From Calditrichales bacterium (GTDB lineage Bacteria > Calditrichota > Calditrichia > Calditrichales > J004), in contig OZ254086.1 in NCBI GenBank assembly GCA_965267575.1, positions 2,208,001 through 2,272,000 on the forward strand: a DNA stretch of 64,000 nucleotides, in the 5' to 3' direction. Each line of letters starts with the position of its first letter. Within the stretch, counting starts at the first letter, position 1. Positions 1 to 64,000 of this stretch are shown here, piece by piece. The translations under genes and the position numbers were made by a program. The notes beneath the pieces were generated by a model. It did not search any database. It was not told where the DNA came from and worked only from the letters and a program-made list of their open reading frames with translations.

Positions 1-1277
1 CAATAGACTCCCGCACGGTGGGGCCCGAAGAGGTGTTCTGGGCCTTGCGCGGCGAGCGCTTTGACGGGCATGACTTTGTAAACGAGGCTTTTGCCCGCGG
101 CGCTCTCTTTTGCGTGATCGAGGAGTCGGCTTCGGCGGAGCTGATGCACAGCGGCATTCCGCTGGTACTGGTGCAGGATACATTGAAAAGCCTGCAAAAC
201 CTGGCCCAAATACAGCGCCTGAAGTACAACATCCCGGTGATCGGGCTGACCGGATCCAACGGCAAGACGACCGTAAAGCAAATGCTATCGCACCTGCTGC
301 AAAAAAAAGGCAATGTGCACAAAACGCATGGCAACCTGAATAATCATATCGGTTGCCCGCTGACGATGCTGCAAATGAATGAAACACACGAAATGGCCAT
401 CCTGGAAATGGGCACAAACAGCCCGGGTGAGATTGCTTTCCTTGGCGCGTTGGGTAAGCCGACACACGCGCTTGTAACGCTGATCGGCGAAGCGCACCTG
501 GAAAAGCTGAAAACCCGCGAAGGTATCGCCAAGGAAAAGCTGAGTCTTTTTGACCAGTTGCCGGCAAACGGCACGGTATACCAGAATATGGATGATCCGT
601 TTATTGCCGACTACAACCGGCCCGGTCTGCGCTACGTGCGCTATGCTTTCGAAAACGACGCGGCGGACGTAAAAGCCGGATATGGCGATCTGGATGATAA
701 TGGCTGCGGCGCGCTGATTTTGGACGGCAAAAACGAGATTCGCCTAAAGGTGGCCGGTTTGCACAATGTGCGTAACGCCCTGGCTGCGGCGGCTGTCGCC
801 CTGGATTTCGGACTAACCACAAATGAAATCGCAGAGGGGCTAAGTACTTTTAAAGCGTACGAAAAGCGGATGCAGATCGTGGAGTGGCGGGGTGCCAGGA
901 TTCTCAATGATGCCTACAACGCCAGTCCTTCATCGATGCGCCTGGCGCTGGACACGGTACAGGCCATTCGGGTAAAGGGCAAAAAGCTTATCGCGCTGGG
1001 CGATATGTTTGAACTGGGCGAAGACGCAGCACAGATGCACCGCGATGTTTTGAAATATGCCGCCGGGCTGAAAGAAGGCCGCTTTTTCCTTATCGGCGAC
1101 CTGATGCACGGGGCGGCGCGCCAAACGGGGCTGGACAACGACAAACGGTTTACGTTGTGCCGCGATCTGAATGAAATGGCCGGCCTTATAAACGGCACGC
1201 TGCAGGAAAACGATCTGCTGATGATAAAAGGTTCGCGCGGAATGCAGATGGAAAAAATACTGGCTTACATAAACTAA
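1..1277 (+). CDS. murF: UDP-MurNAc-tripeptide--D-Ala-D-Ala ligase (5' truncated by window edge)
   Basis: Frame open from window start (IDSR..GERFDGHDF), TGSNGKTT P-loop, NDAYNASP, KGSRG; directly upstream of mraY. Confidence 0.96.
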   Translation, partial: IDSRTVGPEEVFWALRGERFDGHDFVNEAFARGALFCVIEESASAELMHSGIPLVLVQDTLKSLQNLAQIQRLKYNIPVIGLTGSNGKTTVKQMLSHLLQKKGNVHKTHGNLNNHIGCPLTMLQMNETHEMAILEMGTNSPGEIAFLGALGKPTHALVTLIGEAHLEKLKTREGIAKEKLSLFDQLPANGTVYQNMDDPFIADYNRPGLRYVRYAFENDAADVKAGYGDLDDNGCGALILDGKNEIRLKVAGLHNVRNALAAAAVALDFGLTTNEIAEGLSTFKAYEKRMQIVEWRGARILNDAYNASPSSMRLALDTVQAIRVKGKKLIALGDMFELGEDAAQMHRDVLKYAAGLKEGRFFLIGDLMHGAARQTGLDNDKRFTLCRDLNEMAGLINGTLQENDLLMIKGSRGMQMEKILAYIN

Positions 1278-1286
1278 AGAGTCGCC

Positions 1287-2390
1287 ATGCTGTCTGATTT
1301 TTTATATCAGTTCACCGATTACTTTTTCGCTTTTAACGTCTTCCGTTACATCACGGTGCGGGCGGCGTTAAGCGCGGTAACGGCACTGGTGATTGCTTTG
1401 TGGGTGGGGCCACGGATTATCAATGCCCTACGCCGCCACCAGATTGGTGAAGAGATACGCATTGAGGGGCCGGAAAGCCACAAGGTGAAAAAAGGCACGC
1501 CAACCATGGGTGGTCTGATCATCCTGCTTTCGGTTATTGCCGGAACCCTGCTTTGGGCCGATCTGAGCAATTTTTATCTGCTGCTCGCTTTTTTTGCCAC
1601 ACTGGCCATGGGTCTTGTCGGGTTCATAGATGACTATCTCAAGGCTGTGATGAAAATGAAAAAGGGCCTTATCGGGCGCTACAAGCTGATTGGCCAGATT
1701 ACCATGGGGCTGTTGCTGGCGCTGGTAATTGTCTGGCACCCGTTTTTTGAAGGGCTGCATTTCAATACGACGGTACCGTTCTTCAAAAACCTTGAGGTGG
1801 ATCTGGGGTTTTTATATGTACCGCTGATCATTTTTGTGATCACGGGTGCGTCCAACGCGGTCAATCTTACGGATGGTCTGGACGGTCTGGCCTCGGGTCT
1901 TGCCGCGATCGCATTTATCGCGCTGGCCGGTGTGGCCTACGTGACCAGCAACGTCAATTTCAGCGATTACCTGAATATCATTTATCTGCCGGGCAGTGAG
2001 GAGCTGGTGATCTTTTGTATGGCCTTGTTTGGCGCAGCGGTTGGCTTTTTGTGGTATAACGCCCATCCGGCGGAGGTTTTTATGGGCGATACCGGTTCGC
2101 TGGCATTGGGCGCGGCGCTTGGTGCGGTGGCGGTTTTGCTAAAAAAAGAACTGCTGCTTTTGTTGATCGCCGGTGTGTTTATCATGGAAGTGCTTTCTGT
2201 GATCATTCAAACGACGTGGTTTAAATACACGCGGCGCAAATATGGCATGGGCCGTCGCGTTTTTCGCATGAGTCCGGTTCACCATCATTTTGAGTTAAAA
2301 GGCTGGCCGGAAACGAAGGTCGTTGTGCGCTTCTGGATCATTGGTATTCTGCTGGCCTTGTTGAGTCTGAGTACGTTTAAAACGCAATAG
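1287..2390 (+). CDS. mraY: Phospho-MurNAc-pentapeptide transferase
   Basis: KKGTPTMGG, NAVNLTDGLDGLA, FMGDTGS, PVHHHFE motifs; polytopic membrane protein. Confidence 0.98.
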   Translation: MLSDFLYQFTDYFFAFNVFRYITVRAALSAVTALVIALWVGPRIINALRRHQIGEEIRIEGPESHKVKKGTPTMGGLIILLSVIAGTLLWADLSNFYLLLAFFATLAMGLVGFIDDYLKAVMKMKKGLIGRYKLIGQITMGLLLALVIVWHPFFEGLHFNTTVPFFKNLEVDLGFLYVPLIIFVITGASNAVNLTDGLDGLASGLAAIAFIALAGVAYVTSNVNFSDYLNIIYLPGSEELVIFCMALFGAAVGFLWYNAHPAEVFMGDTGSLALGAALGAVAVLLKKELLLLLIAGVFIMEVLSVIIQTTWFKYTRRKYGMGRRVFRMSPVHHHFELKGWPETKVVVRFWIIGILLALLSLSTFKTQ

Positions 2391-2400
2391 CGGTAATGCA

Positions 2401-3750
2401 ATGGACGTAAAAGAAAAAAAAGTAACTGTTCTGGGTGCGGCACGCAGCGGCATTGCCGCCGCTCTGCTGCTTAAGGGCAAAGGGGCGCGCGTCATTGTGA
2501 GCGACAGTGCCGAGGCCGAGCGCAAAGCCATGGAGCAGGACGTGCTGCTGGAGGAGCGCATCGATGCCGAATTCGGCGGGCACAGCGAACGCATTTACGA
2601 TGCCGATTTTGTTGTGCTGAGTCCCGGTATCCCGGCGGCCAGTACCGTGGTGCGACGTTTTTATGAAAAAGATATTCCGGTCTACTCGGAGGTCGAGGTG
2701 GCCGGGTGGTACAACCGCGGTAAGATCATTGGTGTAACCGGCTCCAACGGCAAGACAACGACCACAACGCTTATTGGTGAGATGTTGCGCCGTTCCGATC
2801 CGGGGGCGATCGTTGCCGGCAATATCGGCAGCGCGCTTTCCGAGCATGTGGCCAACAGTAAACCGGGGCGCTGGGGTGTCGTTGAGCTTTCCAGTTTTCA
2901 GTTGGAAACAATCGATACGCTGCATTGCGATTTGGCCGTGGTACTGAACTTCGCGCCCAACCACCTGGACCGCTATGAGAGCTACGAAGATTACATCGAA
3001 GCCAAATGGCGCATCACTAAAAATCTACGCACCGGCGACAGGCTTATCTACAACGCCGACGATGAGCTGCTCAGCCAAAAAGCGCAAACTGTAAAGGGAC
3101 ACGCGCTGGCCTTTAGTACAAAGGGTATCAATCCGCCGGGAGCAGGGCTGCATGAGCACGGCTTATACATGTTTGGCCAAAAATTGATTGACCTGAGCGA
3201 CATTAAACTTAATGGCATCCACAATTATATGAATGCCATGGCGGCGGTCCTAGCGGCGCATTATGCCGGTGTATCGGCGGCAGATATGTGCCATGTGCTT
3301 CAGAACTTTGCCGGTGTGGAGCACCGCCTGGAACATGTGGCCGAAAAAGACGGCATCCTGTTCATTAACGATTCCAAGGCGACCACGGTTGAATCGATGT
3401 CTTACGCGCTGCAAAGTTTTGAACGGCCGATCGTTTTGATCGCCGGGGGTAAGGACAAGGGCAGCGACTTCAGCAAGCTTTTGCCGCTGCTTAAGAAGCA
3501 CGTGCGACAGGCTATTTTAATCGGCACGGCGGCGGACAAAATGCAGCAGGCCTGGCAGGGAAGCATTTCACTGGATAAGGCGGCAGCGCTGGACGAAGCT
3601 GTGGAAAAAGCCGTCAAAGCGGCTCGCAAAGGCGATGTGATTTTACTTTCACCGGCCTGCGCCAGCTTTGACATGTTTAAAGATTATGAAGAACGGGGCC
3701 GCGTGTTTAAGGCCCTTGTAAAAGAGAGGACGCAAGATGCTTCGCGGTAA
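2401..3750 (+). CDS. murD: UDP-MurNAc-L-Ala--D-Glu ligase
   Basis: TGSNGKTTT, ELSSFQL, NHLDRY, NDSKAT, SPACASFD. Confidence 0.98.
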   Translation: MDVKEKKVTVLGAARSGIAAALLLKGKGARVIVSDSAEAERKAMEQDVLLEERIDAEFGGHSERIYDADFVVLSPGIPAASTVVRRFYEKDIPVYSEVEVAGWYNRGKIIGVTGSNGKTTTTTLIGEMLRRSDPGAIVAGNIGSALSEHVANSKPGRWGVVELSSFQLETIDTLHCDLAVVLNFAPNHLDRYESYEDYIEAKWRITKNLRTGDRLIYNADDELLSQKAQTVKGHALAFSTKGINPPGAGLHEHGLYMFGQKLIDLSDIKLNGIHNYMNAMAAVLAAHYAGVSAADMCHVLQNFAGVEHRLEHVAEKDGILFINDSKATTVESMSYALQSFERPIVLIAGGKDKGSDFSKLLPLLKKHVRQAILIGTAADKMQQAWQGSISLDKAAALDEAVEKAVKAARKGDVILLSPACASFDMFKDYEERGRVFKALVKERTQDASR

Positions 3751-11140: not shown

Positions 11141-11943
11141 CTTAGCAGTCTCTCGGCCTGGGAGACATACTCGCTATCTGGGTAACCCTGGATCAGGCGA
11201 TCCAGCTCTTCACGCGCTTTCTGACGATCACCTTTACGAATGTAACACAGCCCTAGCTTGAATTGCGCGTCATCGTCTTTATTTGATTTTCCGAATGTAA
11301 ACACCTTTTCAAAATCGAGGATAGCCGCATCATATTGGCGCAGTTGGTAATGGCATTCTCCGATCCAGTATTGGGCGTTGTCTGCCAGGGAGTGGCTGGT
11401 GCTGGCTGCCAGCAGCGATTCAAAAAGCTCAATGGCTACCTGGTAATTGCGGTTTTCAAATTCGGCGCGGGCATCATTGTAGCGGGTTTCGTATTCAGCC
11501 ATGCTTATCTGCCCGACGTAACCGCCGGATGAGGCCGCGGGGCTCGACTTTTGCTGCTGCAACTCGGCATTCAGATTGTTGATGACTTTATCTTTCTGGC
11601 GTAACTCGCTTTCAAGATTGTCGATACGCTCCTGCAGTTTCTCTTCTTCGGTAGGCGCCATCATCGGCTGGGAGGTATCCAGCGTTTCCTTTTCGTCAAG
11701 CAGGCTCAGCTTCTCGCTGTCTTCCGGCTTGGATTGCTTTTGCCCGGGCTTTTTTTGCGTGGAGCTCTCCTCCTCGGTGGGCGTTATGCCAAGCAGGGCT
11801 TCAATATCATCAAGCTCTTTCTGCTGCTTTTCTTCTTCGGTGAAGAAATCTTCATCGCCTTCTTCCCTGCTGCCGGCACATGCGCTAAACCAAACCAGAC
11901 CCGTTACCAACATTAGTAGCGCCAAAAACGTTTTGAATCGCAT
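11131..11943 (-). CDS. CpoB/YbgF-like TPR lipoprotein
   Basis: Lipobox FSAC, coiled coil, TPR repeats (ADNAQYWIGE, DAQFKLG, YPDS). Confidence 0.8.
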   Translation of the reverse strand: MRFKTFLALLMLVTGLVWFSACAGSREEGDEDFFTEEEKQQKELDDIEALLGITPTEEESSTQKKPGQKQSKPEDSEKLSLLDEKETLDTSQPMMAPTEEEKLQERIDNLESELRQKDKVINNLNAELQQQKSSPAASSGGYVGQISMAEYETRYNDARAEFENRNYQVAIELFESLLAASTSHSLADNAQYWIGECHYQLRQYDAAILDFEKVFTFGKSNKDDDAQFKLGLCYIRKGDRQKAREELDRLIQGYPDSEYVSQAERLLSQM

Positions 11944-12032
11944 CGCTGCCTCCACTCTTACAATCTTATAATTTTAAAAATTTATTACCCAAGCCTCCCT
12001 AAAGCAACCCTATTTCCAATAATTCTAAGGGT

Positions 12033-13247
12033 TTAGACCAAAAAACGGTGGTAAGCGAAATTTTGAATTACGCCTATCATCAATAAGGTAGAAAGCAAAA
12101 ATGAGCCACCATAGCTAAAAAAGGGCAAAGGCAGCCCCGTAACAGGTGCAACTCCCACCGTCATACCGATGTTAACAAAGATATGAAAAAAGAGGACGGC
12201 TGTTACGCCTATGATGGTCATGCTGGCAAAGGCGCTTTTGACCTGCGTTCCCAGATGAACCAGGTACAGCAGGAATGCCAGCAGCACGCCCAGGACAAAA
12301 ATAACACCGGTGAACCCCCATTCTTCGCCAATTACGGAGAAAATAAAATCCGTGTGCTGGGCCGGCAAAAACTTAAGGTGCGTCTGTGTACCGTTTTTGA
12401 AACCCTTACCCCAAACACCCCCGGAGCCGATGGCCACCTGGCTTTGGATGATCTGGTAGCCCGCACCACGCGGGTCCTGCTCGGGGTTGATAAAGGTAAT
12501 GATCCTGCTTTTCTGGTAGGGCTGAAGCTGGTCCCAAAGCTGCGGCGTTAACAGGCCGACGCCAAAATGCAGCGCCAGTACAAGAACAATCAGTGTCCAG
12601 CGCCTGCGGGTGATGTATAAAAATGCCCCGATCAGAAGAAGCCACGCGGCGAGCGCTATCCAGTTGAAGGAGGTAAAAACGGTGATTAGCGGGCTAAGAA
12701 TAAGGAACAGGGCAAACCAGTTAAGCCCGGCCCAGAACATCAACGGAATGGCCATGGCCACATAAACGAGCGACGTGCCCAGATCCGGCTGGCGGATGAT
12801 CAGCAGAAACGGTAAAGCGATAAACGCCGTAACTACCATGAAATGCTTCCAGTGATTGACCGTGACTTCGCGGTTGCAGGTATAACGGGCCACGGCCATA
12901 ATCGTAGCCAGCTTGGCGATTTCCGAAGGCTGGACCTTTATTCCGGCAATGGAAAGCCAGCGTTCTGCGCCAAAACCGCGTACACCGAAGAACTCCACAA
13001 GCACAAGAAGCAAAATTGAAAAGCCGTAAAAGGGATAAGCCATCCTTTCCAGGAAACGAAAAGGCACGAATGTCACGCCAATCATAAGTATCAAACCGGT
13101 AATGGCGAAAATGAGCTGGCGGTCAAAATAGTCGCTTCCGCTGCTGCTGTAGGTGGCGCTGTAAACAGCCGTGAGGCCGATGGTCAAAAGCACGGTAACA
13201 AAAAAGGTCAGTTCAAAGTCTATTCGGCTTAAAATTGCTTTGCTCAT
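12033..13247 (-). CDS. rodA: Rod shape-determining SEDS protein RodA
   Basis: QPSE, QPDLGT, GYQIIQS, HTDFIF, SYGGS; follows the PBP2 gene. Confidence 0.96.
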   Translation of the reverse strand: MSKAILSRIDFELTFFVTVLLTIGLTAVYSATYSSSGSDYFDRQLIFAITGLILMIGVTFVPFRFLERMAYPFYGFSILLLVLVEFFGVRGFGAERWLSIAGIKVQPSEIAKLATIMAVARYTCNREVTVNHWKHFMVVTAFIALPFLLIIRQPDLGTSLVYVAMAIPLMFWAGLNWFALFLILSPLITVFTSFNWIALAAWLLLIGAFLYITRRRWTLIVLVLALHFGVGLLTPQLWDQLQPYQKSRIITFINPEQDPRGAGYQIIQSQVAIGSGGVWGKGFKNGTQTHLKFLPAQHTDFIFSVIGEEWGFTGVIFVLGVLLAFLLYLVHLGTQVKSAFASMTIIGVTAVLFFHIFVNIGMTVGVAPVTGLPLPFFSYGGSFLLSTLLMIGVIQNFAYHRFLV

Positions 13248-53036: not shown

Positions 53037-53414
53037 ATGAAAAGAGAATTTAGTGCTTTATCAAATAAGGTAATTGGCTGCGCAATTGAGGTGCATCGTA
53101 ATTTGGGGCCGGGCTTATTGGAGAGCACGTATCATCAGTGTTTGGCGCATGAGCTAAGAAATAGCAAAATAGAATATAAGTCTGAATACCAGCTGCCGGT
53201 TTTATACAAGGGACAGAAAATTGATTGCGGCTATCGCGTTGATCTGCTTATAGAAAGTGAATTGATTATTGAAATTAAGAGCGTAGAAAAGATTTTGCCC
53301 ATTCACGAGGCGCAACTTTTAACTTACATGAAGCTGGCAAAAATAAAACAGGGATTCTTAGTAAACTTCAACGTAAAACGTCTTACGAACGGCCTAAGAA
53401 GTTTCGTCCTATAA
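53037..53414 (+). CDS. GxxExxY protein (PD-(D/E)XK nuclease-like)
   Basis: LGPGLLESTY signature, YRVDLL, IEIKS, AQLLTY, G.LVNF. Confidence 0.95.
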   Translation: MKREFSALSNKVIGCAIEVHRNLGPGLLESTYHQCLAHELRNSKIEYKSEYQLPVLYKGQKIDCGYRVDLLIESELIIEIKSVEKILPIHEAQLLTYMKLAKIKQGFLVNFNVKRLTNGLRSFVL

Positions 53415-54530: not shown

Positions 54531-54940
54531 TGCACCATGAAGGACAGGAAGAGTATGGAGCCGGATGCGTTGTCATCCCGGCCTTCGCGCCGGGATCTTT
54601 GGTGGTTTGAGTCTTGATTGTCATCTCTAATCCGCGTAGCGGTGAGAGATCCAGGGTTTAGCATACTCCCGGATTTCTTAACATTTACAGAAATGACAGG
54701 GTGGGCGTGTGAACCCATCCCCCGGCCCCTTCCCTTGTTCCAAAGGAAGGGGAGAAAAACGCCTTTGGTAAATATCGGGTGTAACGGGATGTGATTCCGG
54801 TTGAGCATGATCCCGGATTTCTCACGTTCGTTCGAAATGACATAAAGATGCTGAAATGAATTCAGCATGACGTTCCTGGCGTCATCCCGAACTTGTTTCG
54901 GGATCTAATGCTTCATGACCTTCATGCTCTTCATGGTGAA
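54531..54940. repeat. Composite repeat block: CATGAAG inverted pair enclosing six GTCAT-tagged hairpins and one C/G-rich hairpin
   Basis: Forward motif 54531-54560 and reverse 54911-54940; GTCAT hairpins at 54571, 54619, 54671, 54815, 54846, 54880; CCCCTTCC/GGAAGGGG at 54726-54752. Confidence 0.9.
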
Positions 54941-54961
54941 CAAAAAATTTAAGGAGTAAAA

Positions 54962-56254
<1,293 letters not shown>

Positions 56255-56300
56255 GACTTAAGATTAAAGATGAAAGATTAAAAGCGAAGAGTTTGGAAGG

Positions 56301-56324
56301 GCCCGCCGGTTGGCGGGCTTTTTT
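56301..56324 (+). terminator. Intrinsic terminator of the hem operon
   Basis: GCCCGCC-GGTT-GGCGGGC-TTTTTT. Confidence 0.88.
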
Positions 56325-56351
56325 ATTAAGGAATTATTCTAGTTGGTTCGG

Positions 56352-57050
56352 CTAACAAATAACATCAGGCCAGCTTATTATGCCGGCAAGATATTCATTA
56401 ATTACTATTCTAATTTCAACACCAGAATTCTGTGATGCCAAATACCTATATACGCCAGGTTGAACGACAATCCATCCGTGATCATTAATATCAATTCCGG
56501 TAAATAATCGGGTCATAGCTCTGCTTCCTACTTCAGGAAACAAGCTTGATTCGGGCTGCGCTTCAAATTCAAATCTTGTTTTTTCATCTAAAGCACACAA
56601 TGGAAAAAGCGAAACGGAATCAGGTTTTATATAAACCGGTAAATGCAACTCGAACAAAGAATGGCCCTTTGCAAGTTTCGTTATGACGTTTTGTATTCGT
56701 TCCGTTTCAGGTGTGAAAATTATTTCGTTGTTTTCTTTTATTATAGAATTCTGAATCCTTGCACGAAGGGATCCTTTCTTTCTCAGAATCCTTGCTATCC
56801 TTTTTCTCATTATCAAATCTGGATCAGTGGAACCTGATAAAACGCATGCCATTAAACAAGCCATATACTCTTCATCAGCCGAAAAACTGTTATTGCATTC
56901 TACGCATGCAGGCACCACCGGCAAATTGTCCGGGTAGGGTTGGTCAAGCAAAATCTTAGACGGACAATGATCTCTTGTTCCCGTCTTTCCGCCGCAAAAA
57001 GCGCAGAAGCCGATTTCTCTTTGATCACCGTAACTTCTAATTTGCTTCAT
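56352..57050 (-). CDS. HNH endonuclease-like protein
   Basis: CAFC..TRDHCP..VPACVECNN zinc-binding HNH pattern. Confidence 0.8.
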   Translation of the reverse strand: MKQIRSYGDQREIGFCAFCGGKTGTRDHCPSKILLDQPYPDNLPVVPACVECNNSFSADEEYMACLMACVLSGSTDPDLIMRKRIARILRKKGSLRARIQNSIIKENNEIIFTPETERIQNVITKLAKGHSLFELHLPVYIKPDSVSLFPLCALDEKTRFEFEAQPESSLFPEVGSRAMTRLFTGIDINDHGWIVVQPGVYRYLASQNSGVEIRIVINEYLAGIISWPDVIC

Positions 57051-57486
57051 TTTTGTTCAGCAAAAATTTGGCTACAATAAGGCTGGATAAGGTTGACAGT
57101 GTGCGTTTTCTAATAGTCTCGTTTTTTAATTCGCATTGCCACACGGTTAATACCTTCCAACCGGCTTTTTTCAGTTCGGTTGATTTAACCTTGTCTCGCT
57201 CAACGGTTTTGGAGATTTTCTCTTTCCAGAATTTTGTGTTTGTGGCGGGCAATGAGGCCTGAGGACATCCTCTATGTCCATGCCAGAAACAACCGTGTAC
57301 AAAAATTACTGTTTTATATTTGGGCAAAACAATATCCGGTTTACCGGGTAGCTCCTTAACGTTTTTTCTAAATCTGAAGCCTTCCGCAAACAAGTAAGAA
57401 CGAACCAATATTTCAGGCGTTGTTTCCTGCCCATTAATATTTGACATAATTTTAGATCGCTTATGCTTAGAATATATATCTGTCAT
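57037..57486 (-). CDS. vsr: Very short patch repair endonuclease
   Basis: MTD..RS..MS, T.PE, LPGKPD, FVHGCFWHGH, FW..K, RD, WQC. Confidence 0.95.
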   Translation of the reverse strand: MTDIYSKHKRSKIMSNINGQETTPEILVRSYLFAEGFRFRKNVKELPGKPDIVLPKYKTVIFVHGCFWHGHRGCPQASLPATNTKFWKEKISKTVERDKVKSTELKKAGWKVLTVWQCELKNETIRKRTLSTLSSLIVAKFLLNKNEAN

Positions 57487-58742
57487 CTAATAATTGACAA
57501 TCCTAATCTAGCAGTATGAGATGCCATTTTTTGTAATACATCGGCAAAAAGCTTTTCTTTAACCCTAAATAGTAATTTATACTTGTTTTCATCATTTAGT
57601 TCTTCTTTAGAAATAAATCCCAGTATTCTAAAATCGAAAACTATTATTTGAGGTTCGTTTTTGCCCTCTAAGAAAATAGGCCACAATTCTTTATAGAAGC
57701 TATCTGGCAACTGTCTTTTTGAATTGCAAGTATGATAATACCCTGCAAGGACTCTAGGACTTTTAGATTTATTGTTCGCATAATCGCAAGGCGGTGTCAT
57801 CTCAATTATAATAGGTGAGGCGCCCTCGGGAAGCTCACCATATCTAAAAGAGTTCTCTTTTTGCATTACTTCATATACGTTTCCAGGAATAACTTTATTT
57901 TGCGATATATGCACTTGATCAACTAATAAACTTGAATTTATTTTTGCATAAATCTTATATAATTCTGCAGAAACCGTTTTTTTTGTCTCTGCTTTTATTG
58001 ATTTATTTTCGTTGTCTAAATACTCTATTTCACTCGTTTTTGTAAATAAAGTGAAATTTTCCGAGATGGAATTAATATTATATACTAACATGTCATTGAA
58101 TGCTTTTATTGCATCAATACTTAAAGGATAATCGTCAAGCTCTTGCAAACTAATTCCAGTATAATTCTGAGCCAACTTAAATAACAAAAACTCTAAATTC
58201 TTATCCTGTTTTGTGTAATCAGGAACTAGGTCAAATATCGAAGAAATAGCATTGTCACGACCTTGATTTACTAACCTACTCCAGCTAATAAAAAAATGTG
58301 CTGCGATACTCTCTCTTAATTCATTATCTAGATCATTTAACAGATTATCGTAGCCATCCCTTAAGTATTTTTGCTTATCTAAACCACAAATAAAGAGCGG
58401 TAGCGAATAGGTATCTTTATCAAGTTGAAGTTTTTCTTTAATTGTATCAATATGATGCTGGTGGTTAGTCCAAACAACAAGGCCATATGTGCCAAAGTTT
58501 TTCCCAACAATATTTTTAAAAATTTTTCTTATTTCTGCAATATGACCTTTCAATTCCGTTGCAGTATTACTCAGATATATATCCAAAAAAATAATTTTAC
58601 GATTTTTCAGCTCCTTTACGCAATCTTCAGGCAGCTTATGCTTTACCCAAATGTCATTTTCTTCAAGCAGTTCTTTTAACTTCTGAATTTCTTCAGGCTT
58701 ATCATCAATAATTAAAGCGCTATCAATAAATTCTAATACCAT
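57483..58742 (-). CDS. Receiver (REC)-domain protein with uncharacterised C-terminal domain
   Basis: LIIDD, IFLDI (phosphoacceptor Asp), VWT, DK; C-terminal PG.VY and TPPCDY motifs. Confidence 0.75.
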   Translation of the reverse strand: MVLEFIDSALIIDDKPEEIQKLKELLEENDIWVKHKLPEDCVKELKNRKIIFLDIYLSNTATELKGHIAEIRKIFKNIVGKNFGTYGLVVWTNHQHHIDTIKEKLQLDKDTYSLPLFICGLDKQKYLRDGYDNLLNDLDNELRESIAAHFFISWSRLVNQGRDNAISSIFDLVPDYTKQDKNLEFLLFKLAQNYTGISLQELDDYPLSIDAIKAFNDMLVYNINSISENFTLFTKTSEIEYLDNENKSIKAETKKTVSAELYKIYAKINSSLLVDQVHISQNKVIPGNVYEVMQKENSFRYGELPEGASPIIIEMTPPCDYANNKSKSPRVLAGYYHTCNSKRQLPDSFYKELWPIFLEGKNEPQIIVFDFRILGFISKEELNDENKYKLLFRVKEKLFADVLQKMASHTARLGLSIIR

Positions 58743-58751
58743 ATCTTTTTC

Positions 58752-60833
58752 TTATTTTGGAAAACACAAAGCAATAATTGCTTGAGTTATTTTTTTACTT
58801 TTTACGAGTTCAGAAAACTCAATATCGTATTCGTCAATAAAAAGTAGATTACCCTTCATACTTTTCATCATTTCATTGGCTATATGTAAGCCTAGACCCG
58901 AGCCTATATTGTGAGGCTTGCCCGTGATAAAGGGATTAATTGCTATCTCGATAGGAATAGTAAAGCCCGGTCCGTTGTCTGAGACGACAATAGAATTATA
59001 TCCTTTTATTTGGTCTGTAATAAATACGGAGATCCTTTTGTTCATCGTCTGTGAATAGCTTAGCCAATATATTGAATTATCTAAGAGATTTGTTAAAACT
59101 GATATTGATTCAGATTCAGCAAACATCGCAAAAAGCTTGTTTTCTTGGTAGTTGGTGACGATTTCAATTTCGTGGTCTTTGAATCGAAATTCATAATTTT
59201 CAAGCGCGATTTTGACTACCTTGGACAATTGGCCTTTTTGAATGTGAGATTTTTTTATCATTGCTGAATAACCGCGTATTATTTTTTCCAACATTAAAGA
59301 AATGCTGATAGCCTTATTTAAATCGCGGTTATTAATACTACCGGTTAATTGCGATATTAGTTTTTCTATTTCATGAATAACAACACTTAGGTTCAAACCA
59401 GCATTTGCACTTTTTATTAAAATCTCTTTTACATCTTTATATTGAGAATTGATATTTGCTAAGTATTTTAATAATTGATTTTTTATTTCTATATCTTCTA
59501 TTTTTGTTTCAACTATTTCGATAGCTTCGTTTAAGTCTGATAAGACCGGCTCCGATACCTTATGCTTTTTATAAAGAATCGTTAAGCGTTCTTTATCATA
59601 ATTTCGTTCTCTTACGAATAAGTGTAATGCGTATCTTACTGCAGTTGCAAAAGCCGTATAGGCAATATCTTCGACAAAACCTTCCCTATTAGTTTTTTCT
59701 TTGAGGTCAGTGCTTTTTTCTCGTTTTAATTTAACTGCTCCAATAATAATATTATTACTTACATTTCCACCTAGTTTTCCAACTCTTTTTATGTCAATTT
59801 CTAGCCAATCATTGTCCGGCTCACCATAGTTATAGACTCTTACTCCATCTCTATAAACCCTTATACCGCCGTTTTCTCGTAAATATGTATTTATGGTCTT
59901 TTTTTCACCAGTGACATAGTTGAAAATTTCCGGTGCTCTATCAAAAATCATAATATTAAATTCAACAGGACCAATCTTAAATTTATTAAGGTTAATGCGT
60001 TTGCCTTCTTCATCAACGATCTCTAAATCGATGTCCTTAAAATCCTCAAGATTTTTTATTCTTCCTGATTCTATTTTAGATAATGAAGTCCAGGGTCGAA
60101 ATTCATATTTGATATTAATTATTTGATTGCCGTCAAGTGTACACTTACCAAAATATAATGCTGCGCTTTTTATTTCTTCGAAAGCAGGTAATCCTTCAAA
60201 TAAATCGTCTCTATTACTATTAATAATAACCTTAAAATTATCGTTGCTTTCATCAAAAGGACTATTTAATGAAGTTAAAGCTCTATATGTATTTCTTAAT
60301 TGTCTCTTATCCCAAACAGTTTTTAAATCTTCTATTATTATTTTTGTACCTGTATTATTGGCAAATTCTACATCATCATTCTTCTCAATGTTAATTTTAA
60401 AATCGTTTATATCTTTTATATAATCGAGCATTTTCCAGTCTATGTCTAATTGAACTCCCGGTGAGTCCTGCATTTTGCTAACTAGTTTTATCTTATTTCC
60501 GAGCTTATGAACCCCTAAACGTCCAATACCCTTTTCCCCTAGCGGTATTCTCTTGCAAGTATTCGGCCTAATGTTTTTGTATTTATTATCAGTTCCAATG
60601 GTTAACCAGTGCTCTTCAATAATATTACTGTTCATTCCCAAGCCATTGTCTTTTACAATTATTTTATTAAGAATGCCATTATCACCTACTATGAAGTTAA
60701 CCTTACACTCATTAGCACAAGCATCATATGCGTTTTTAACAAGTTCCAGCAATGCGATGCTTTCACTCTTTATTAAATCTTCGCCCAAATGAGATAATAT
60801 TCTAGGAGATATGGAAAATGGTTTTTTCATCAC
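58752..60833 (-). CDS. GHKL (MORC/MutL-like) ATPase fused to a histidine kinase domain
   Basis: N-terminal ELVKNAYDA, DNGLGM, GEKGIGR; C-terminal IHE, NLLDNS, DNGPG, PFITGK, GSGLGL. Confidence 0.9.
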   Translation of the reverse strand: MMKKPFSISPRILSHLGEDLIKSESIALLELVKNAYDACANECKVNFIVGDNGILNKIIVKDNGLGMNSNIIEEHWLTIGTDNKYKNIRPNTCKRIPLGEKGIGRLGVHKLGNKIKLVSKMQDSPGVQLDIDWKMLDYIKDINDFKINIEKNDDVEFANNTGTKIIIEDLKTVWDKRQLRNTYRALTSLNSPFDESNDNFKVIINSNRDDLFEGLPAFEEIKSAALYFGKCTLDGNQIINIKYEFRPWTSLSKIESGRIKNLEDFKDIDLEIVDEEGKRINLNKFKIGPVEFNIMIFDRAPEIFNYVTGEKKTINTYLRENGGIRVYRDGVRVYNYGEPDNDWLEIDIKRVGKLGGNVSNNIIIGAVKLKREKSTDLKEKTNREGFVEDIAYTAFATAVRYALHLFVRERNYDKERLTILYKKHKVSEPVLSDLNEAIEIVETKIEDIEIKNQLLKYLANINSQYKDVKEILIKSANAGLNLSVVIHEIEKLISQLTGSINNRDLNKAISISLMLEKIIRGYSAMIKKSHIQKGQLSKVVKIALENYEFRFKDHEIEIVTNYQENKLFAMFAESESISVLTNLLDNSIYWLSYSQTMNKRISVFITDQIKGYNSIVVSDNGPGFTIPIEIAINPFITGKPHNIGSGLGLHIANEMMKSMKGNLLFIDEYDIEFSELVKSKKITQAIIALCFPK

Positions 60834-61897
60834 GTTTCCGTTTGATCTATTATCGCTTTGCCAACTCTCTTGGCATATTCGGGAGGAACCGCATTGCCAA
60901 TTATCTTAGCCGTTATCGCAATGCTTTTTGCTTTAAAAATATAGCTTTTAGGAAAAGTCTGAAGCGTTGCTCCCTCGCGTAATGATAATGCTCTGTTTTC
61001 TTCTGGATGACCGAAACGCCCGTTTGACAAACTGTGAAACTTAGTCGTTATTGTTGGGGCGGGCTTGTCCCAATATATTCTTCCATATGTATCTACAAAA
61101 GAATTAGAATCTCTATTCTTATATGTTTCTAACTGTAAGTCAGTGTTTGCCCAATCTGATCTTGTACCGCCATCTTTTTTTGTAGAACAAATTCTCTTCA
61201 GGTTTTTTTCGCTTAAGCCCGATGCAGTGTGCATAAAGTTAGTATAATCTTTGTGACCGCAAGATATTTTGGGGAATCCATTTCTTAAACCTATAAAATC
61301 TCTTACAACAGGAGGGTGGCCAATATCCTCTTTAGGAAAAATTCCTTTTTTAATAACTCTTGATGCTATTAATGTAAATCTTTTTCTAATCTGAGGTACG
61401 CCAAACTTATTTAGATTGACTATTTTATGTTCTACTTTAAAATCCATATTTTTAAGCGCTTTAATAAATAGTTCAATGCCGCTTTCGGATCGCCTAGTCC
61501 AGATTCCTGGAACGTTTTCAACAACCACATAGCCTGGTTTATAATGGCTTATAAAACGCAGAAAATCAAATAGCAGATTTTTGGATTTGCTTGAATTATC
61601 TTTGTTGGTATTTAATTTTGTCCAAAATTGACAAGGACTACAGCCAACAAAAATCATACTATCATCATTAATACTAATTTCGACGTAATCAGTTAAACTT
61701 TTTTCGCTTAGTCTTGTAATGTCGGCGTGAATAAATTTTGCCTGTTTTAGGTTTGCCTCATATGTATCTCTGCATGTTATATCAATATCAAGTCCAGCAA
61801 TTACATCAACACCGGCCTGCTGTAATCCAAAACTCATTCCGCCACCTGAACAGAAGAAGTCGATTGCCTTGATTTTATTACTGCGATTCAAAAACAT
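60830..61897 (-). CDS. DNA cytosine-C5 methyltransferase
   Basis: Motifs I DFFCSGGG, IV SPCQ, VI ENV, VIII Q.RKR, IX RE..LQTFP, X GNAVPP. Confidence 0.95.
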   Translation of the reverse strand: MFLNRSNKIKAIDFFCSGGGMSFGLQQAGVDVIAGLDIDITCRDTYEANLKQAKFIHADITRLSEKSLTDYVEISINDDSMIFVGCSPCQFWTKLNTNKDNSSKSKNLLFDFLRFISHYKPGYVVVENVPGIWTRRSESGIELFIKALKNMDFKVEHKIVNLNKFGVPQIRKRFTLIASRVIKKGIFPKEDIGHPPVVRDFIGLRNGFPKISCGHKDYTNFMHTASGLSEKNLKRICSTKKDGGTRSDWANTDLQLETYKNRDSNSFVDTYGRIYWDKPAPTITTKFHSLSNGRFGHPEENRALSLREGATLQTFPKSYIFKAKSIAITAKIIGNAVPPEYAKRVGKAIIDQTET

Positions 61898-62059
61898 ATT
61901 TTTAACTGGTAAGAGTTTGCGTAAATCTTAATGGGCAAATGATAGATGAATTTAGTATTCAGCGCAATACTGTTGTAAGCTTTTTCCTTTGACAAAATAA
62001 TATTTCTTAAAGTAACACTTATCTTTTTAACCCTATTAAAGCACTGCCCAAATCAGCTA

Positions 62060-62551
62060 TCATTCTCCCTTCTTCTCCACCGAGCTGGCGTGGTCTTTTA
62101 TCACGTACCAGGTGCCGTTTTCCTTGCGCAGGGCGTAGCTCACGCTCATGCGGTTGAAATAGGGTTTGCCGTGGCGCTCGGGCTCGCGGTACAAAATTTC
62201 CGTGGTGGCCAGGGCCAGCTCCTGCCCGACTTCCAGTTTCAGTATCTGCCAGTCAAAACTCCAGCCCGTTTCTTTGAACCAGACTTCGTGCATCTCCACA
62301 AAACTTTGCACGTCGCCGCTGATTTCTTGTCCGGGCAAAATAAGCTCCATCTCGCCGCTGGGGGAAAGGGTATTTTTCAGCGTGGGCAAATCCTTACTGG
62401 CGATGGCGCGCAGGTGTGTTTCCAGCACCAGCCGGGCTTCGGTGGTAGCGCGTTCCTTGTTGGGCGGGGCCGTGCAGGCGCAAAGCAGAAGCGTGGCGGC
62501 AAAAAGAAAGGCCAAAGCTGTAGGTTGAAGCCGGGGATATGTCATTGTCAT
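62060..62551 (-). CDS. NTF2/SnoaL-like lipoprotein
   Basis: Signal peptide with Cys; C-terminal ENGTWYVIKDHAS typical of the NTF2-like fold. Confidence 0.75.
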   Translation of the reverse strand: MTMTYPRLQPTALAFLFAATLLLCACTAPPNKERATTEARLVLETHLRAIASKDLPTLKNTLSPSGEMELILPGQEISGDVQSFVEMHEVWFKETGWSFDWQILKLEVGQELALATTEILYREPERHGKPYFNRMSVSYALRKENGTWYVIKDHASSVEKKGE

Positions 62552-62712
62552 TACTCGCGTTAGTAAGCATCAATAATAGGAGATATTTCAATAACGGGCA
62601 ATGGTGGATTTTTGAACGGTCTAAAAATATTTAAGAGAATACAACCTGGATAGTATTCGATCGGATGGTATACGACGAAGCTAACCTATGGCGTTGGCCC
62701 CGTTTTGAAATT

Positions 62713-62883
62713 TTACTTTTCAGCTTTTCTGCTTTTATGCATTGAGGGGTGTAGAGGCTTTTTCTTTTTAAGATACTCAGAGAGCTCTTTGTAAGACATA
62801 TTCTTTATATCGTCACTGATTTTTTCCCTGATGTCTCGAAGCTGCCGGATGACAGATTGTTTAGCTTTTGGCTTAGTCTTCAT
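62713..62883 (-). CDS. 56-aa partner of the PIN protein (putative antitoxin); below the ORF-track cutoff
   Basis: Hand translation MKTKPKAKQSVIRQLRDIREKISDDIKNMSYKELSEYLKKKKPLHPSMHKSRKAEK; overlaps the PIN 3' end by 11 nt. Confidence 0.6.
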   Translation of the reverse strand: MKTKPKAKQSVIRQLRDIREKISDDIKNMSYKELSEYLKKKKPLHPSMHKSRKAEK

Positions 62884-63337
62884 ATTCCAGTATTTCCCTT
62901 GGTGTTCTTATTTCAAGTATTTGATGTCCATGCCGGTAATTAACAGAATTGTATCCTCTGATTCGATTTATGTTCACAATGTGTTTAAAATTCCAGCTCA
63001 CAAGAATATCCGCATTATTCAATGTCGCCAACGCAATGTGAAGACAATCCGCACGGCTCGCTTTCCCCACAACCTTTTCGTTAATATAGCTGTCAGCTAA
63101 TTCGATCGCGTCTTTTGTTAGCTCGACCACTTCTACATATTTCGCGGGAATTTCGAGTACCAGTTCTTTTACTTGCTCTGGTGCCCGGTTTAGTTCATCA
63201 TCTGTTAACCGCGAATAAAGTAGTCGATATTGCCCCTTCTTAATTCGGTCAAATAATAACCTGGTCCATAATTCAAATTCCGGATCAAATTGTCCTCCGA
63301 ATACTGATGTGTCGAGATATAAAAGATCCATTTTCAC
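62873..63337 (-). CDS. PIN-domain (VapC-like) ribonuclease
   Basis: YLDTSV, EL, DCLHIA, LVSWNFKH, TP.E. Confidence 0.88.
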   Translation of the reverse strand: MKMDLLYLDTSVFGGQFDPEFELWTRLLFDRIKKGQYRLLYSRLTDDELNRAPEQVKELVLEIPAKYVEVVELTKDAIELADSYINEKVVGKASRADCLHIALATLNNADILVSWNFKHIVNINRIRGYNSVNYRHGHQILEIRTPREILEYED

Positions 63338-63606
63338 GTTAGCTCAAATTGGGACACATAGATTTCAATCCAGCGAGATATTAGTTAATTCATAACGCAA
63401 AACCCGGGCAAAAGCAATCACAAAATAGAATATACTTCTCCGATTCACAAGAGCTGATCATAGCATTTGTCATTTAAATAGATTTGATCGTTGGACTGAA
63501 TTGTTCACAGAATGCGTTACGTTTTCAACATATATAATATCATTTTGCAAAAATTAGTAAATCCTATAATTTGTCCTCCAAACATGATTATACGGAAGAT
63601 GCTAAT

Positions 63607-64000
63607 ATGGACCCGATTTCCCTGACTGAACTACAGAATGCCATAGGCCGCAAGAACACACGGCTAATCGATACCCGCCCGGTGGATGCCTACAACGGCT
63701 GGCGCGAGCGCGGCGAAAAACGCGGCGGACACATCGCGGGCGCTAAAAGCCTGCCCGCCAAATGGGCCAATTATATCGACTGGATCGAGATTGTCCGCTC
63801 CAAGGGTCTGGCACCCGAACATGAACTGATTTTATACGGCTACGACCGCGCGGAGACCGAAAAGGTAGCCCGTGTTTTTCAGCGGGCCGGTTATGAAAAC
63901 GTAAAGCTGTATCACGGTTTTGTGAAAGAATACAGCGCCGATGAAAGCCTACCCATGCAGCGATTGCAGCGCTACCGTCAGCTGGTTTCCGCCCACTGGC
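63607..64000 (+). CDS. Multidomain rhodanese/thiosulfate sulfurtransferase (3' truncated)
   Basis: Hand translation: LIDTRP..AYNGW..RGGHIAGAK; frame open to the window end. Confidence 0.85.
   Translation, partial: MDPISLTELQNAIGRKNTRLIDTRPVDAYNGWRERGEKRGGHIAGAKSLPAKWANYIDWIEIVRSKGLAPEHELILYGYDRAETEKVARVFQRAGYENVKLYHGFVKEYSADESLPMQRLQRYRQLVSAHW

Follow-up and report, generated by a model that had tools for sequence, protein, structure and literature searches.

The window analyzed here, 64,000 nucleotides (nt) of the genome of a Calditrichales bacterium (GenBank assembly GCA_965267575.1, contig OZ254086.1, positions 2,208,001 to 2,272,000), contains a five-gene operon in which a C5 cytosine DNA methyltransferase and a Vsr endonuclease flank a histidine kinase-like protein with two GHKL-type ATPase modules and an adjacent receiver protein, hereafter RECx, and which ends with a gene for a small HNH-motif protein. 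In the interpretation that we favor, with a probability of roughly 50%, a His-Asp relay from the MORC/MutL-like sensor kinase gates a toxin-fold domain at the C terminus of RECx, and the Dcm-type methylase and Vsr form a self-marking and repair arm. The architecture of this cassette is not categorically new. What is added here is the predicted MazF/CcdB-fold output domain with a motif that links it to a larger protein family, the demotion of the HNH-motif gene to an accessory, and the description of kinase-receiver pairs that lack the methylase. The compact clade to which the window cassette belongs is invisible to the dedicated Pfam models.

All five genes are co-oriented on the minus strand (56352-61897) and tightly coupled, with overlaps of 4, 4, and 14 nt and a single 9-nt gap in the open reading frame (ORF) listing of the window. 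The five genes encode a Dcm-type C5 cytosine DNA methyltransferase of 355 amino acids (aa) (60830-61897; PF00145), a dual-GHKL protein of 693 aa that comprises a paraMORC/MutL-type ATPase, a middle domain, and a histidine kinase core (58752-60833; PF13589 and PF02518), the receiver-effector protein RECx of 419 aa (57483-58742; recognized by predicted folds and conserved residues), the very-short-patch-repair endonuclease Vsr of 149 aa (57037-57486; PF03852), and the product of the accessory gene, a 232-aa protein recognized by its pattern of Cys and His residues (56352-57050). A first-pass annotation, made from the sequence letters and the ORF translations, had already described this gene arrangement, the two ATP-binding modules of the 693-aa protein (a MORC/MutL-type GHKL domain and a kinase with H, N, G1, F, and G2 boxes), and the retention of the DD, D, T, and K residues of the receiver. 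On all three points it agrees with the ORF listing, the Pfam matches, the alignments, and the CheY-like fold reported below.

The 693-aa protein starts with a Bergerat ATP-binding fold (residues 25-137, 60423-60761 on the minus strand; PF13589, expectation value [E] of 1.9e-18) and ends with the catalytic ATP-binding domain of a kinase (residues 578-665, 58839-59102; PF02518, 7.6e-14) that carries the N, G1, F, and G2 boxes and gives a phmmer match to the solved histidine kinase 9qq6_A (3.8e-6). Across 22 aligned sequences, of which the one from locus L026 spans the N-terminal part only, residues E30, N34, D37, D62/G64/G66, and G99-G104 of the Bergerat fold are invariant, and H487-E488, N586, D619/G621, F635, and G644/G646/G648 of the kinase are at least 90% conserved. 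The alignment marks H487, within the H box VIHEIEKL (codon 59373-59375, minus strand), as the predicted phospho-accepting histidine. The features of a classical two-component system, namely, the H, N, G1, F, and G2 boxes and the full set of receiver residues, are all present, and no catalytic residue required for a His-Asp relay is missing or altered. Homologues of the kinase are 47 to 79% identical across phyla, with a single outlier (L046) at 37%. At three loci (L003, L025, and L026), the kinase match falls into two abutting or slightly overlapping segments, in two frames in L025 and L026, which suggests a frameshift or decay; one of these split genes sits in the complete chromosome of Treponema vincentii. 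A complex prediction that paired the receiver (residues 1-135) with the core of the kinase (residues 440-693) scored 0.00 and was used neither way.

RECx had no match in Pfam, NCBIfam, PADLOC, or PHROG, and its family comprises 450 proteins at E ≤ 1e-3, none of them annotated in Pfam. In its AlphaFold model (predicted local distance difference test score [pLDDT] of 88.1), the N-terminal part has a CheY-like receiver fold (residues 3-130, 58353-58736 on the minus strand, with the D54 codon at 58581-58583), followed by a helical linker of four helices (residues 134-229, 58056-58343). The VIA fold search aligned the receiver with 2qzj_A (Z-score of 10.6 over 115 residues, root mean square deviation [rmsd] of 3.1) and with about 50 receiver structures in all, at Z-scores of 10.6 to 9.2; Foldseek also matches the N terminus of RECx to response regulators. 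Among 32 homologues, D13, D54, and K123 do not vary, D14 is kept in at least 90%, and position 92, next to an invariant W91, is T or S. Alignments with AmiR/FixJ-type regulators extend into the linker helices with a poor rmsd. Together with the long helix that follows the receiver, the AmiR-like alignments suggest a phosphorylation-controlled rearrangement of a dimer, which would suit a MazF-type dimer. Searches of the ESM Atlas returned unnamed clusters, one of them with PF19192 on 18% of its members at a score of 0.77, which we take as a lead only.

The C-terminal part of RECx (residues 230-419), modeled alone with 38 homologues (pLDDT of 86.7), contains the predicted effector domain (residues 282-414, 57501-57899 on the minus strand), whose fold in the model is that of the MazF, PemK, and CcdB toxins. 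In a VIA search of 48,161 representative chains, the top 15 matches were all to MazF, Kid, CcdB, CptN, AbiQ, or ToxN, with Z-scores from 9.1 to 4.4, the best being 4mzm_A (Z of 9.1, 111 of 115 residues, rmsd of 3.7) and 8zws_A (Z of 9.0), with CcdB at 7.9; the nearest unrelated fold scored 4.1. Foldseek searches of the PDB likewise placed MazF, Kid, and CcdB first (E of 1.3e-2, probability of 0.99 to 1.0, TM score of ~0.6 on the target), and PemK-like proteins headed the list obtained from a library of viral structures. Invariant residues of the domain include E314, T316, P317-P318, C319, D320, D401, Q404, K405, and R412. By eye, the segments PGNVYEV and IIIEMTPPCD resemble the first strand and the strand-Thr loop of MazF; the MazF-like position of the invariant T316 is likewise judged by eye only, and this resemblance serves as a lead. 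Judging by the model, the C-terminal domain of RECx is a plausible effector with a MazF/PemK/CcdB-like fold. A reading of the 'CD...DFR' segment as a PD-(D/E)xK nuclease motif was dropped because the fold searches gave no restriction endonuclease-like fold among the matches listed. A literature search found no description of a receiver-MazF fusion.

To assess conservation, one genome per species was scanned, yielding 46 loci onto which the five window proteins were mapped by tblastn. Bacteroidota make up most of the hosts; the others include Melioribacteraceae, Campylobacter, Sulfurovaceae, Treponema, Aggregatibacter, and metagenome-assembled genomes of Hyphomicrobiales and Verrucomicrobiae. 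In 36 of the 37 loci with at least 2.3 kb of upstream sequence, the gene immediately preceding that of the receiver is the kinase gene, and a Dcm gene (>45% identity) immediately precedes the kinase in 28 of 35 (27 counted by script, plus L024 added by hand, where Dcm runs 2 nt into the start of the kinase). Vsr directly follows RECx in 15 of 43 loci, is found anywhere in the locus in 28, and is missing from 15. Because of these co-occurrence counts, the core is taken to be methylase-kinase-receiver, often with Vsr. The first-pass annotation had tied the idea of a single system to a conserved co-occurrence of its genes elsewhere, and this is what these loci display: on the evidence of gene order and sequence, the methylase, the dual-GHKL kinase, and the receiver protein are a unit that is conserved and inherited together.

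In the scheme that we propose for this unit, the methylase would mark host DNA and Vsr would repair T:G mismatches. The 693-aa protein would be a soluble sensor kinase whose MutL/MORC-like clamp reads a DNA-linked or infection-linked cue; reading of the cue would drive autophosphorylation of H487, from which the phosphoryl group would pass to D54 of the 419-aa protein. There, the receiver and the helical linker would restrain the MazF/PemK/CcdB-fold domain until phosphorylation, and the freed domain, a toxin-like effector (nuclease or poison), would stop the invader or kill or arrest the cell. The whole would be a methylation-linked defense or addiction module, the 'R' arm of which is a gated toxin and not a classical restriction endonuclease. 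A bolder version of this scheme, which we put forward only tentatively and regard as doubtful, has RECx as a phosphorylation-gated MazF/CcdB-fold toxin fired directly by a DNA-sensing MORC-like kinase, making it an abortive-infection restriction arm guarded by cytosine methylation, with a hidden domain ([ST]-P-x-C-D ... R-x-G-L) common to the larger Response_reg_2 family, for which a regulatory output has been assumed.

Two-component signaling usually means gene regulation, and restriction-modification (R-M) usually means a methylase with a DNase. If the output of RECx is a toxin-fold domain, the 'regulatory' model published for related cassettes would be read differently, and MORC-type ATPases would be linked to phosphorelay-controlled decisions on cell fate. 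It would also provide a concrete effector for a system whose relative, Ambrosia of Pseudomonas, is an experimentally validated anti-phage defense (10.1101/2025.09.30.679545). The cassette family is widespread, with 450 RECx-family proteins in the compact clade and 647 representatives in the published-type clade; neither its kinase nor its receiver protein is covered by a PADLOC model, and the dedicated Pfam models miss the compact clade. Should the fold prediction be wrong or the domain inert, the window would hold an ordinary new clade of a computationally described cassette.

Several observations weigh against the gated-toxin scheme. The assignment of the MazF/CcdB fold comes from a predicted model. 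A profile of the C-terminal domain searched against PDB sequences gave a single chance match (E of 0.35) and none to MazF or PemK, its comparison by hhalign with 28 PemK toxins reached an E of 0.43 in local mode, and PF02452 had no match in the window protein, the 32 family members, or the whole genome. The catalytic Arg/Thr pair of MazF was not mapped onto the domain, and the ORF list has no antitoxin-sized gene in the operon. In 7 of 35 cases, the kinase-receiver pair has no cassette methylase directly upstream. Unrelated genes (ThiF, DnaE, and an AMP-binding enzyme) take its place in L009, L010, and L011; L037 has an unknown 350-aa gene upstream of the kinase, L041 a 39%-identical Dcm on the opposite strand downstream, and L046 a distant Dcm fragment only. 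In L032, the usual place of Dcm is taken by a full-length HpaII restriction endonuclease (427-1497, plus strand; PF09561, 8.9e-145), which ends 1 nt before the kinase homologue (1501-3591), with the contig stopping just upstream. No close Dcm copy was found elsewhere in the genomes of L009, L010, L011, L032, and L037, in which the best matches are 28 to 32% identical; these five include metagenome-assembled genomes that are possibly incomplete. Since pairs without a methylase exist, the kinase-receiver pair is not obviously lethal in its absence, and such pairs also speak against the sensing of unmethylated DNA by the ATPase. For Ambrosia, methylation is reported to have given phage no protection, and the authors propose REC-driven transcriptional control (10.1101/2025.09.30.679545).

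In a first alternative, the kinase and the receiver protein make up a two-component system for regulation: phosphorylated RECx would control the methylase and defense genes such as the HNH-motif gene at the DNA or RNA level, and the MazF-like domain would be a nucleic acid- or protein-binding module instead of a toxin. It would accord with the suggestion, in the Discussion of a study of related cassettes, that the signaling proteins control R-M (PMC8011034), with the phage-induced reporters and the winged helix-turn-helix (wHTH) predicted in the REC protein of Ambrosia (10.1101/2025.09.30.679545), and with the fold matches of the full RECx model, which run from the receiver into AmiR, EutV, and FixJ-type helices; in L032, moreover, the pair adjoins the complete R.HpaII gene. 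However, the AmiR/FixJ alignments beyond the receiver have an rmsd of ~10 to 12, and none of the 32 family members matches a helix-turn-helix (HTH), wHTH, or ANTAR family. The conserved domain at the C terminus has a MazF/CcdB-like predicted fold and numerous invariant polar residues, and the overlapping genes leave little space for internal regulated promoters. We consider such a regulatory role unlikely.

Neither protein of the pair shows a known DNase fold or motif, which bears on a second alternative, namely, that the restriction enzyme of a type II-like R-M system is formed jointly by the 693-aa and 419-aa proteins. In this view, the GHKL module would be a DNA clamp or translocase, the C terminus of RECx would cut unmethylated DNA, and the kinase-like part would be mainly a second ATPase or a conformational switch. 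The first ~200 aa of the kinase indeed match NF050001, the BbrUII/HgiDII restriction enzyme family (1.6e-25), but with 89.7 bits against a curated cut-off of 550 and over positions 4 to 201 of 659 only. The pair follows a methylase in 28 of the 35 loci and the core cassette encodes no other restriction enzyme, yet pairs without a methylase exist, and the conserved H box and receiver phosphorylation site would be needless for a mere ATPase. Known paraMORC GHKL domains are joined to nucleases, both in R-M contexts (PMC2292703) and in VcSduA (PMC12137116). On balance, this composite restriction enzyme seems rather improbable.

The identity of the two enzymes of the self-marking arm is clear from the profile matches. 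The methylase matches PF00145 over its full length (residues 10-350, 1.6e-53), TIGR00675 (2.7e-41), and the PADLOC MTase_II model (1.7e-84), with the SPCQ and ENV motifs visible in the translation. Its nearest solved relative, M.HaeIII, matches over the N-terminal half only; because the solved relatives (M.HaeIII, DNMT1, and M.HhaI) align to the conserved halves only, no target specificity can be inferred. Vsr is recognized by PF03852 (2.8e-34), TIGR00632 (5.8e-43), and the PADLOC Vsr model (5e-34). PADLOC, one of the databases named in the first-pass annotation, recognizes the methylase and Vsr and lacks models of the kinase and of the receiver gene; the 693-aa protein gets a weak 19 bits against PDC-S26, and the receiver and HNH-motif proteins match nothing. 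As that annotation had noted, no canonical restriction enzyme is encoded: none of the five genes matched a restriction endonuclease family in Pfam, NCBIfam, or PADLOC.

Vsr repairs T:G mismatches that arise from deamination of 5-methylcytosine, as is established for Dcm/Vsr pairs. In a third alternative, the GHKL protein assists Vsr in the manner of MutL and the cassette combines a methylase with enhanced very-short-patch repair, having no role in immunity. Vsr is part of the operon, and the N terminus of the kinase has weak NCBIfam matches to MutL (2.2e-5). Escherichia coli MutL stimulates Vsr (cited in PMC2292703). Such a repair helper is nevertheless highly improbable, as it would leave the kinase core, the receiver, and the MazF-like domain unexplained, and Vsr follows directly in only 15 of the 43 loci and is missing from as many.

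The remaining gene of the operon does not belong to this core. Within the family of the 232-aa protein, C16, C19, D27, H28, C49, C52, and N53 are invariant and N42 is at least 90% conserved, giving the pattern CxxC...DH...N...CxxCN, which is accompanied by a conserved C-terminal part of ~170 aa. The protein has no match to the HNH_2 model and none in Pfam, NCBIfam, PADLOC, or PHROG; Pfam HNH_5 is touched by 1 of 26 family members (E of 0.031, below threshold), and a homologue is labeled 'HNH endonuclease 5 domain-containing' in one source. The family consists of 243 stand-alone proteins of ~228 aa, mostly from Pseudomonadota. In gammaproteobacteria, a homologue follows a type I hsdM-hsdS-hsdR-ygjP operon, a context that we count as one observation because the two loci are closely similar. 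Since tblastn found the gene in 0 of the 46 related loci, it is regarded as an add-on. Of the two effectors considered in the first-pass annotation, the C terminus of the REC protein thus stays plausible, given its MazF-like fold, and the HNH-motif protein falls outside the system. We interpret the gene as one for a mobile accessory nuclease of defense islands, which would have been acquired separately at the 3' end of the operon and which may have been co-opted here, given its 14-nt overlap with Vsr.

A scan of the corresponding downstream slot at the related loci covered 20 selected ORFs, all of them on the strand of the cassette, at least 100 aa long, and beginning no more than 400 nt beyond the last core gene. 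They include DUF3427+HNH proteins 11 to 12 nt after the receiver gene in L020 and L022, a 232-aa HEPN/AbiV protein (PF18728, 5.5e-22) 2 nt after Vsr in L006 (9824-10519, plus strand), a MutH-like protein in L013, and McrB-like genes (MrcB_N plus AAA_5) in the Bacteroidales/Prevotella loci L031 (9458-11248), L035 (9329-11287), and L036 (1473-3212); the other 13 are unrelated or unannotated. McrB-like genes of this kind are typical of methylcytosine-dependent restriction. The DUF3427+HNH and HEPN/AbiV cases, together with the 232-aa gene of the window, indicate that a small nuclease of varying family is sometimes tightly appended to the cassette.

The operon occupies an AT-rich block, as the first-pass annotation had pointed out: the GC content between 56.3 and 61.9 kb is 0.29 to 0.38 (overall ~0.32), compared to 0.55 to 0.62 in the flanking hemL and ~0.55 in the next gene on the other side. 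At the low-coordinate edge, a GC-rich hairpin with a T-run, the hem terminator of that annotation, is visible by eye after hemL (56299-56325, plus strand; GGCCCGCC-GGTT-GGCGGGC, then TTTTTT), and it is not among the calls of a consensus terminator scan. Upstream of the methylase lies an AT-rich intergenic region of 162 nt (61898-62059, minus strand), which presumably contains the promoter. The promoter and terminator scan gave the same counts as shuffled sequence; the promoter-like count of 26, against a shuffle expectation of 23.1 ± 4.9, reveals no promoter signal above chance. The only candidates for flanking repeats, a pair of 18-nt matches at 56278 and 61902, are weak (78% identity) and were regarded as chance.

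Of 86 genomes from the phylum of the host, 2 carry a RECx-like gene, the copy outside the window genome being part of a divergent cassette with a 41%-identical kinase, a 23%-identical receiver protein, and a 23%-identical methylase. The GC contrast and this rarity within the phylum point to horizontal acquisition of the island. In an empty-site synteny test, the downstream 163-aa gene was found in just 1 other genome of the 39 in the order, at a locus without hemL nearby, which makes that locus uninformative on the empty site. Among contigs from four sequencing runs, one matches positions 54811-63900 of the window without a difference; neither the island nor its flanks are covered by the remaining runs that carry this species label, which hence offer no empty-site comparison. 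Just beyond the island, in an AT-rich patch (GC of ~0.38 to 0.40), two overlapping small genes of 56 and 154 aa (62713-63337, minus strand) resemble, by eye only, a toxin-antitoxin-type pair. Another AT-rich patch (GC of 0.38) with GC-rich surroundings, just upstream of hemB, contains a 125-aa ORF (53037-53414, plus strand).

With regard to published systems, the architecture of what the first-pass annotation called a candidate defense system is already in print (PMC8011034; 10.1101/2025.09.30.679545); its statement that it knew of no resolved mechanism still holds. The first of these publications, a purely computational study (Bellieny-Rabelo, Pretorius, and Moleleki 2021; PMC8011034), describes a cassette with the same order of C5 methylase, histidine kinase (HK)-like, response regulator (RR)-like, and Vsr genes, with HNH genes nearby. 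The HK-like protein combines HATPase_c_3, HEF_HK (PF19191), and HATPase_c; the adjacent RR-like protein consists of Response_reg_2 (PF19192) with no other known domain, and the two are linked in 91.6% of 644 regions. The authors speculate that they form a cytoplasmic two-component system regulating R-M (PMC8011034).

The window cassette has this same arrangement (HATPase_c_3, H box, and HATPase_c, with the receiver gene adjacent, a C5 methylase upstream, and Vsr downstream) and shares with the system of PMC8011034, as described there, the gene order, the soluble kinase, the patchy distribution, the receiver protein with an unannotated C terminus, and the HNH neighbors. It differs in size, with a kinase of 693 instead of 991 to 1003 aa and a receiver protein of 419 instead of 555 to 617 aa, and in that the C terminus of the receiver protein, left uncharacterized in the accessible text of PMC8011034, is predicted here to have a MazF/CcdB-like toxin fold, which is the new element. 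PF19192 has no match at E ≤ 10 in the window protein or the 32 family members and none in the whole genome or in five other genomes carrying the compact pair; PF19191 has none on the 693-aa protein, and its sole match in the genome lies elsewhere (E of 1.3). The positive control, L055, gives PF19192 on the receiver protein (2e-13) and PF19191 on the kinase (6.3e-7).

True Response_reg_2 members were detected in 3 of 400 sampled gammaproteobacterial genomes, where the loci encode Dcm, a kinase of 991 to 1003 aa, and a receiver protein of 555 to 617 aa, with Vsr next in one of them (L055). The window kinase is related to the HEF_HK-type kinases of all three, with three collinear blastp segments in each case (E of 7e-20, 3e-12, and 3e-8) and identities of 33 to 36% in the N-terminal GHKL domain, 28 to 33% in the middle, and 22 to 28% in the kinase core. 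The homology of the receiver proteins is weaker than that of the kinases because it is seen by hhalign only: RECx has no blastp match to the three true Response_reg_2 proteins, and the RECx hidden Markov models (HMMs) have none either. An hhalign comparison with only these three gave an E of 0.11 and was repeated with 118 compact against 132 published-type sequences. The receiver regions then aligned with an E of 8.6e-5 (probability of 60%) and, more weakly, the C-terminal domains with an E of ~1e-3 (probability of 21 to 24%, 138 columns), with TPPCDF opposite SPACDL and LQK..S..ARLGL opposite LQrL...SRVGL.

In one published-type cassette (L053), the Dcm (11888-12979, minus strand) is 55% identical to that of the window, and those of the other two are ~30% identical; methylases seem to have been exchanged between the clades. 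Two divergent cassettes, in L100 (genome G006) and L105 (genome G435), keep the order of C5 methylase, dual-GHKL protein of ~700 to 724 aa, and receiver protein. The gammaproteobacterial L105 represents a third clade, with a 436-aa Dcm, a 724-aa dual-GHKL protein, and a receiver protein of 362 aa, the N terminus of which touches PF00072 (E of 1.5e-6, 28.8 bits against a cut-off of 30.2) and the C terminus of which matches the RECx C-terminal profile (3.2e-5). From these comparisons we conclude that the window cassette belongs to a compact sibling clade within one superfamily, outside both Pfam families under their present definitions.

Ambrosia consists of an XRE regulator, an N6-adenine methyltransferase, a kinase/HSP90-like ATPase, a REC protein, and a type IV HNH protein (10.1101/2025.09.30.679545). 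Its anti-phage activity requires all of its domains, among them the HATPase, D60 of REC, the methyltransferase, and HNH; reporters within the cluster are induced by phage, a wHTH is predicted in the REC protein, and the authors do not regard it as a conventional type II R-M system (10.1101/2025.09.30.679545). Compared by description, the two clusters share a DNA methylase, a histidine kinase/HSP90-like ATPase, a REC protein, and an HNH gene. Where Ambrosia has the XRE gene, the N6-adenine methyltransferase, the wHTH in REC, and an integral type IV HNH, the window has a C5 methylase with Vsr, no XRE or HTH gene, a MazF-like REC protein, and a nonconserved HNH-motif gene.

The likeness of RECx to MazF/PemK/Kid, CcdB, and ToxN lies in the predicted fold of residues 282-414, which matches MazF, Kid, CcdB, and CptN over nearly the full length (Z-scores of 9.1 to 6.6), and, by analogy, in a growth-arresting effector that would be held inactive until triggered. 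RECx differs from these toxins in having no sequence similarity to them, no separate antitoxin gene, and a fused receiver, and its invariant motifs (E-x-T-P-P-C-D, D-x-x-Q-K, and R-L-G) are distinct. With BbrUII/HgiDII, the 693-aa protein has in common the GHKL ATP-binding region of its first ~200 residues, and the remainder is a kinase core instead of the C-terminal part of that family. It shares with the paraMORC ATPases a MutL/MORC-like GHKL domain with intact ATP-binding motifs in Dcm/Vsr/HNH neighborhoods (Iyer, Abhiman, and Aravind 2008; PMC2292703) and, with VcSduA (Shedu type I-D) as well, a GHKL module that is thought to control a linked effector; VcSduA, a GHKL-nuclease fusion, defends against phage (PMC12137116). 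In the paraMORC families, as covered by the accessible parts of these sources, the effector (a RecB-like or DUF4263 nuclease or TIR) is fused or adjacent, with no His-Asp relay (PMC2292703, PMC12137116), whereas the cassette described here places a kinase core and a separate receiver protein between the GHKL module and the predicted effector.

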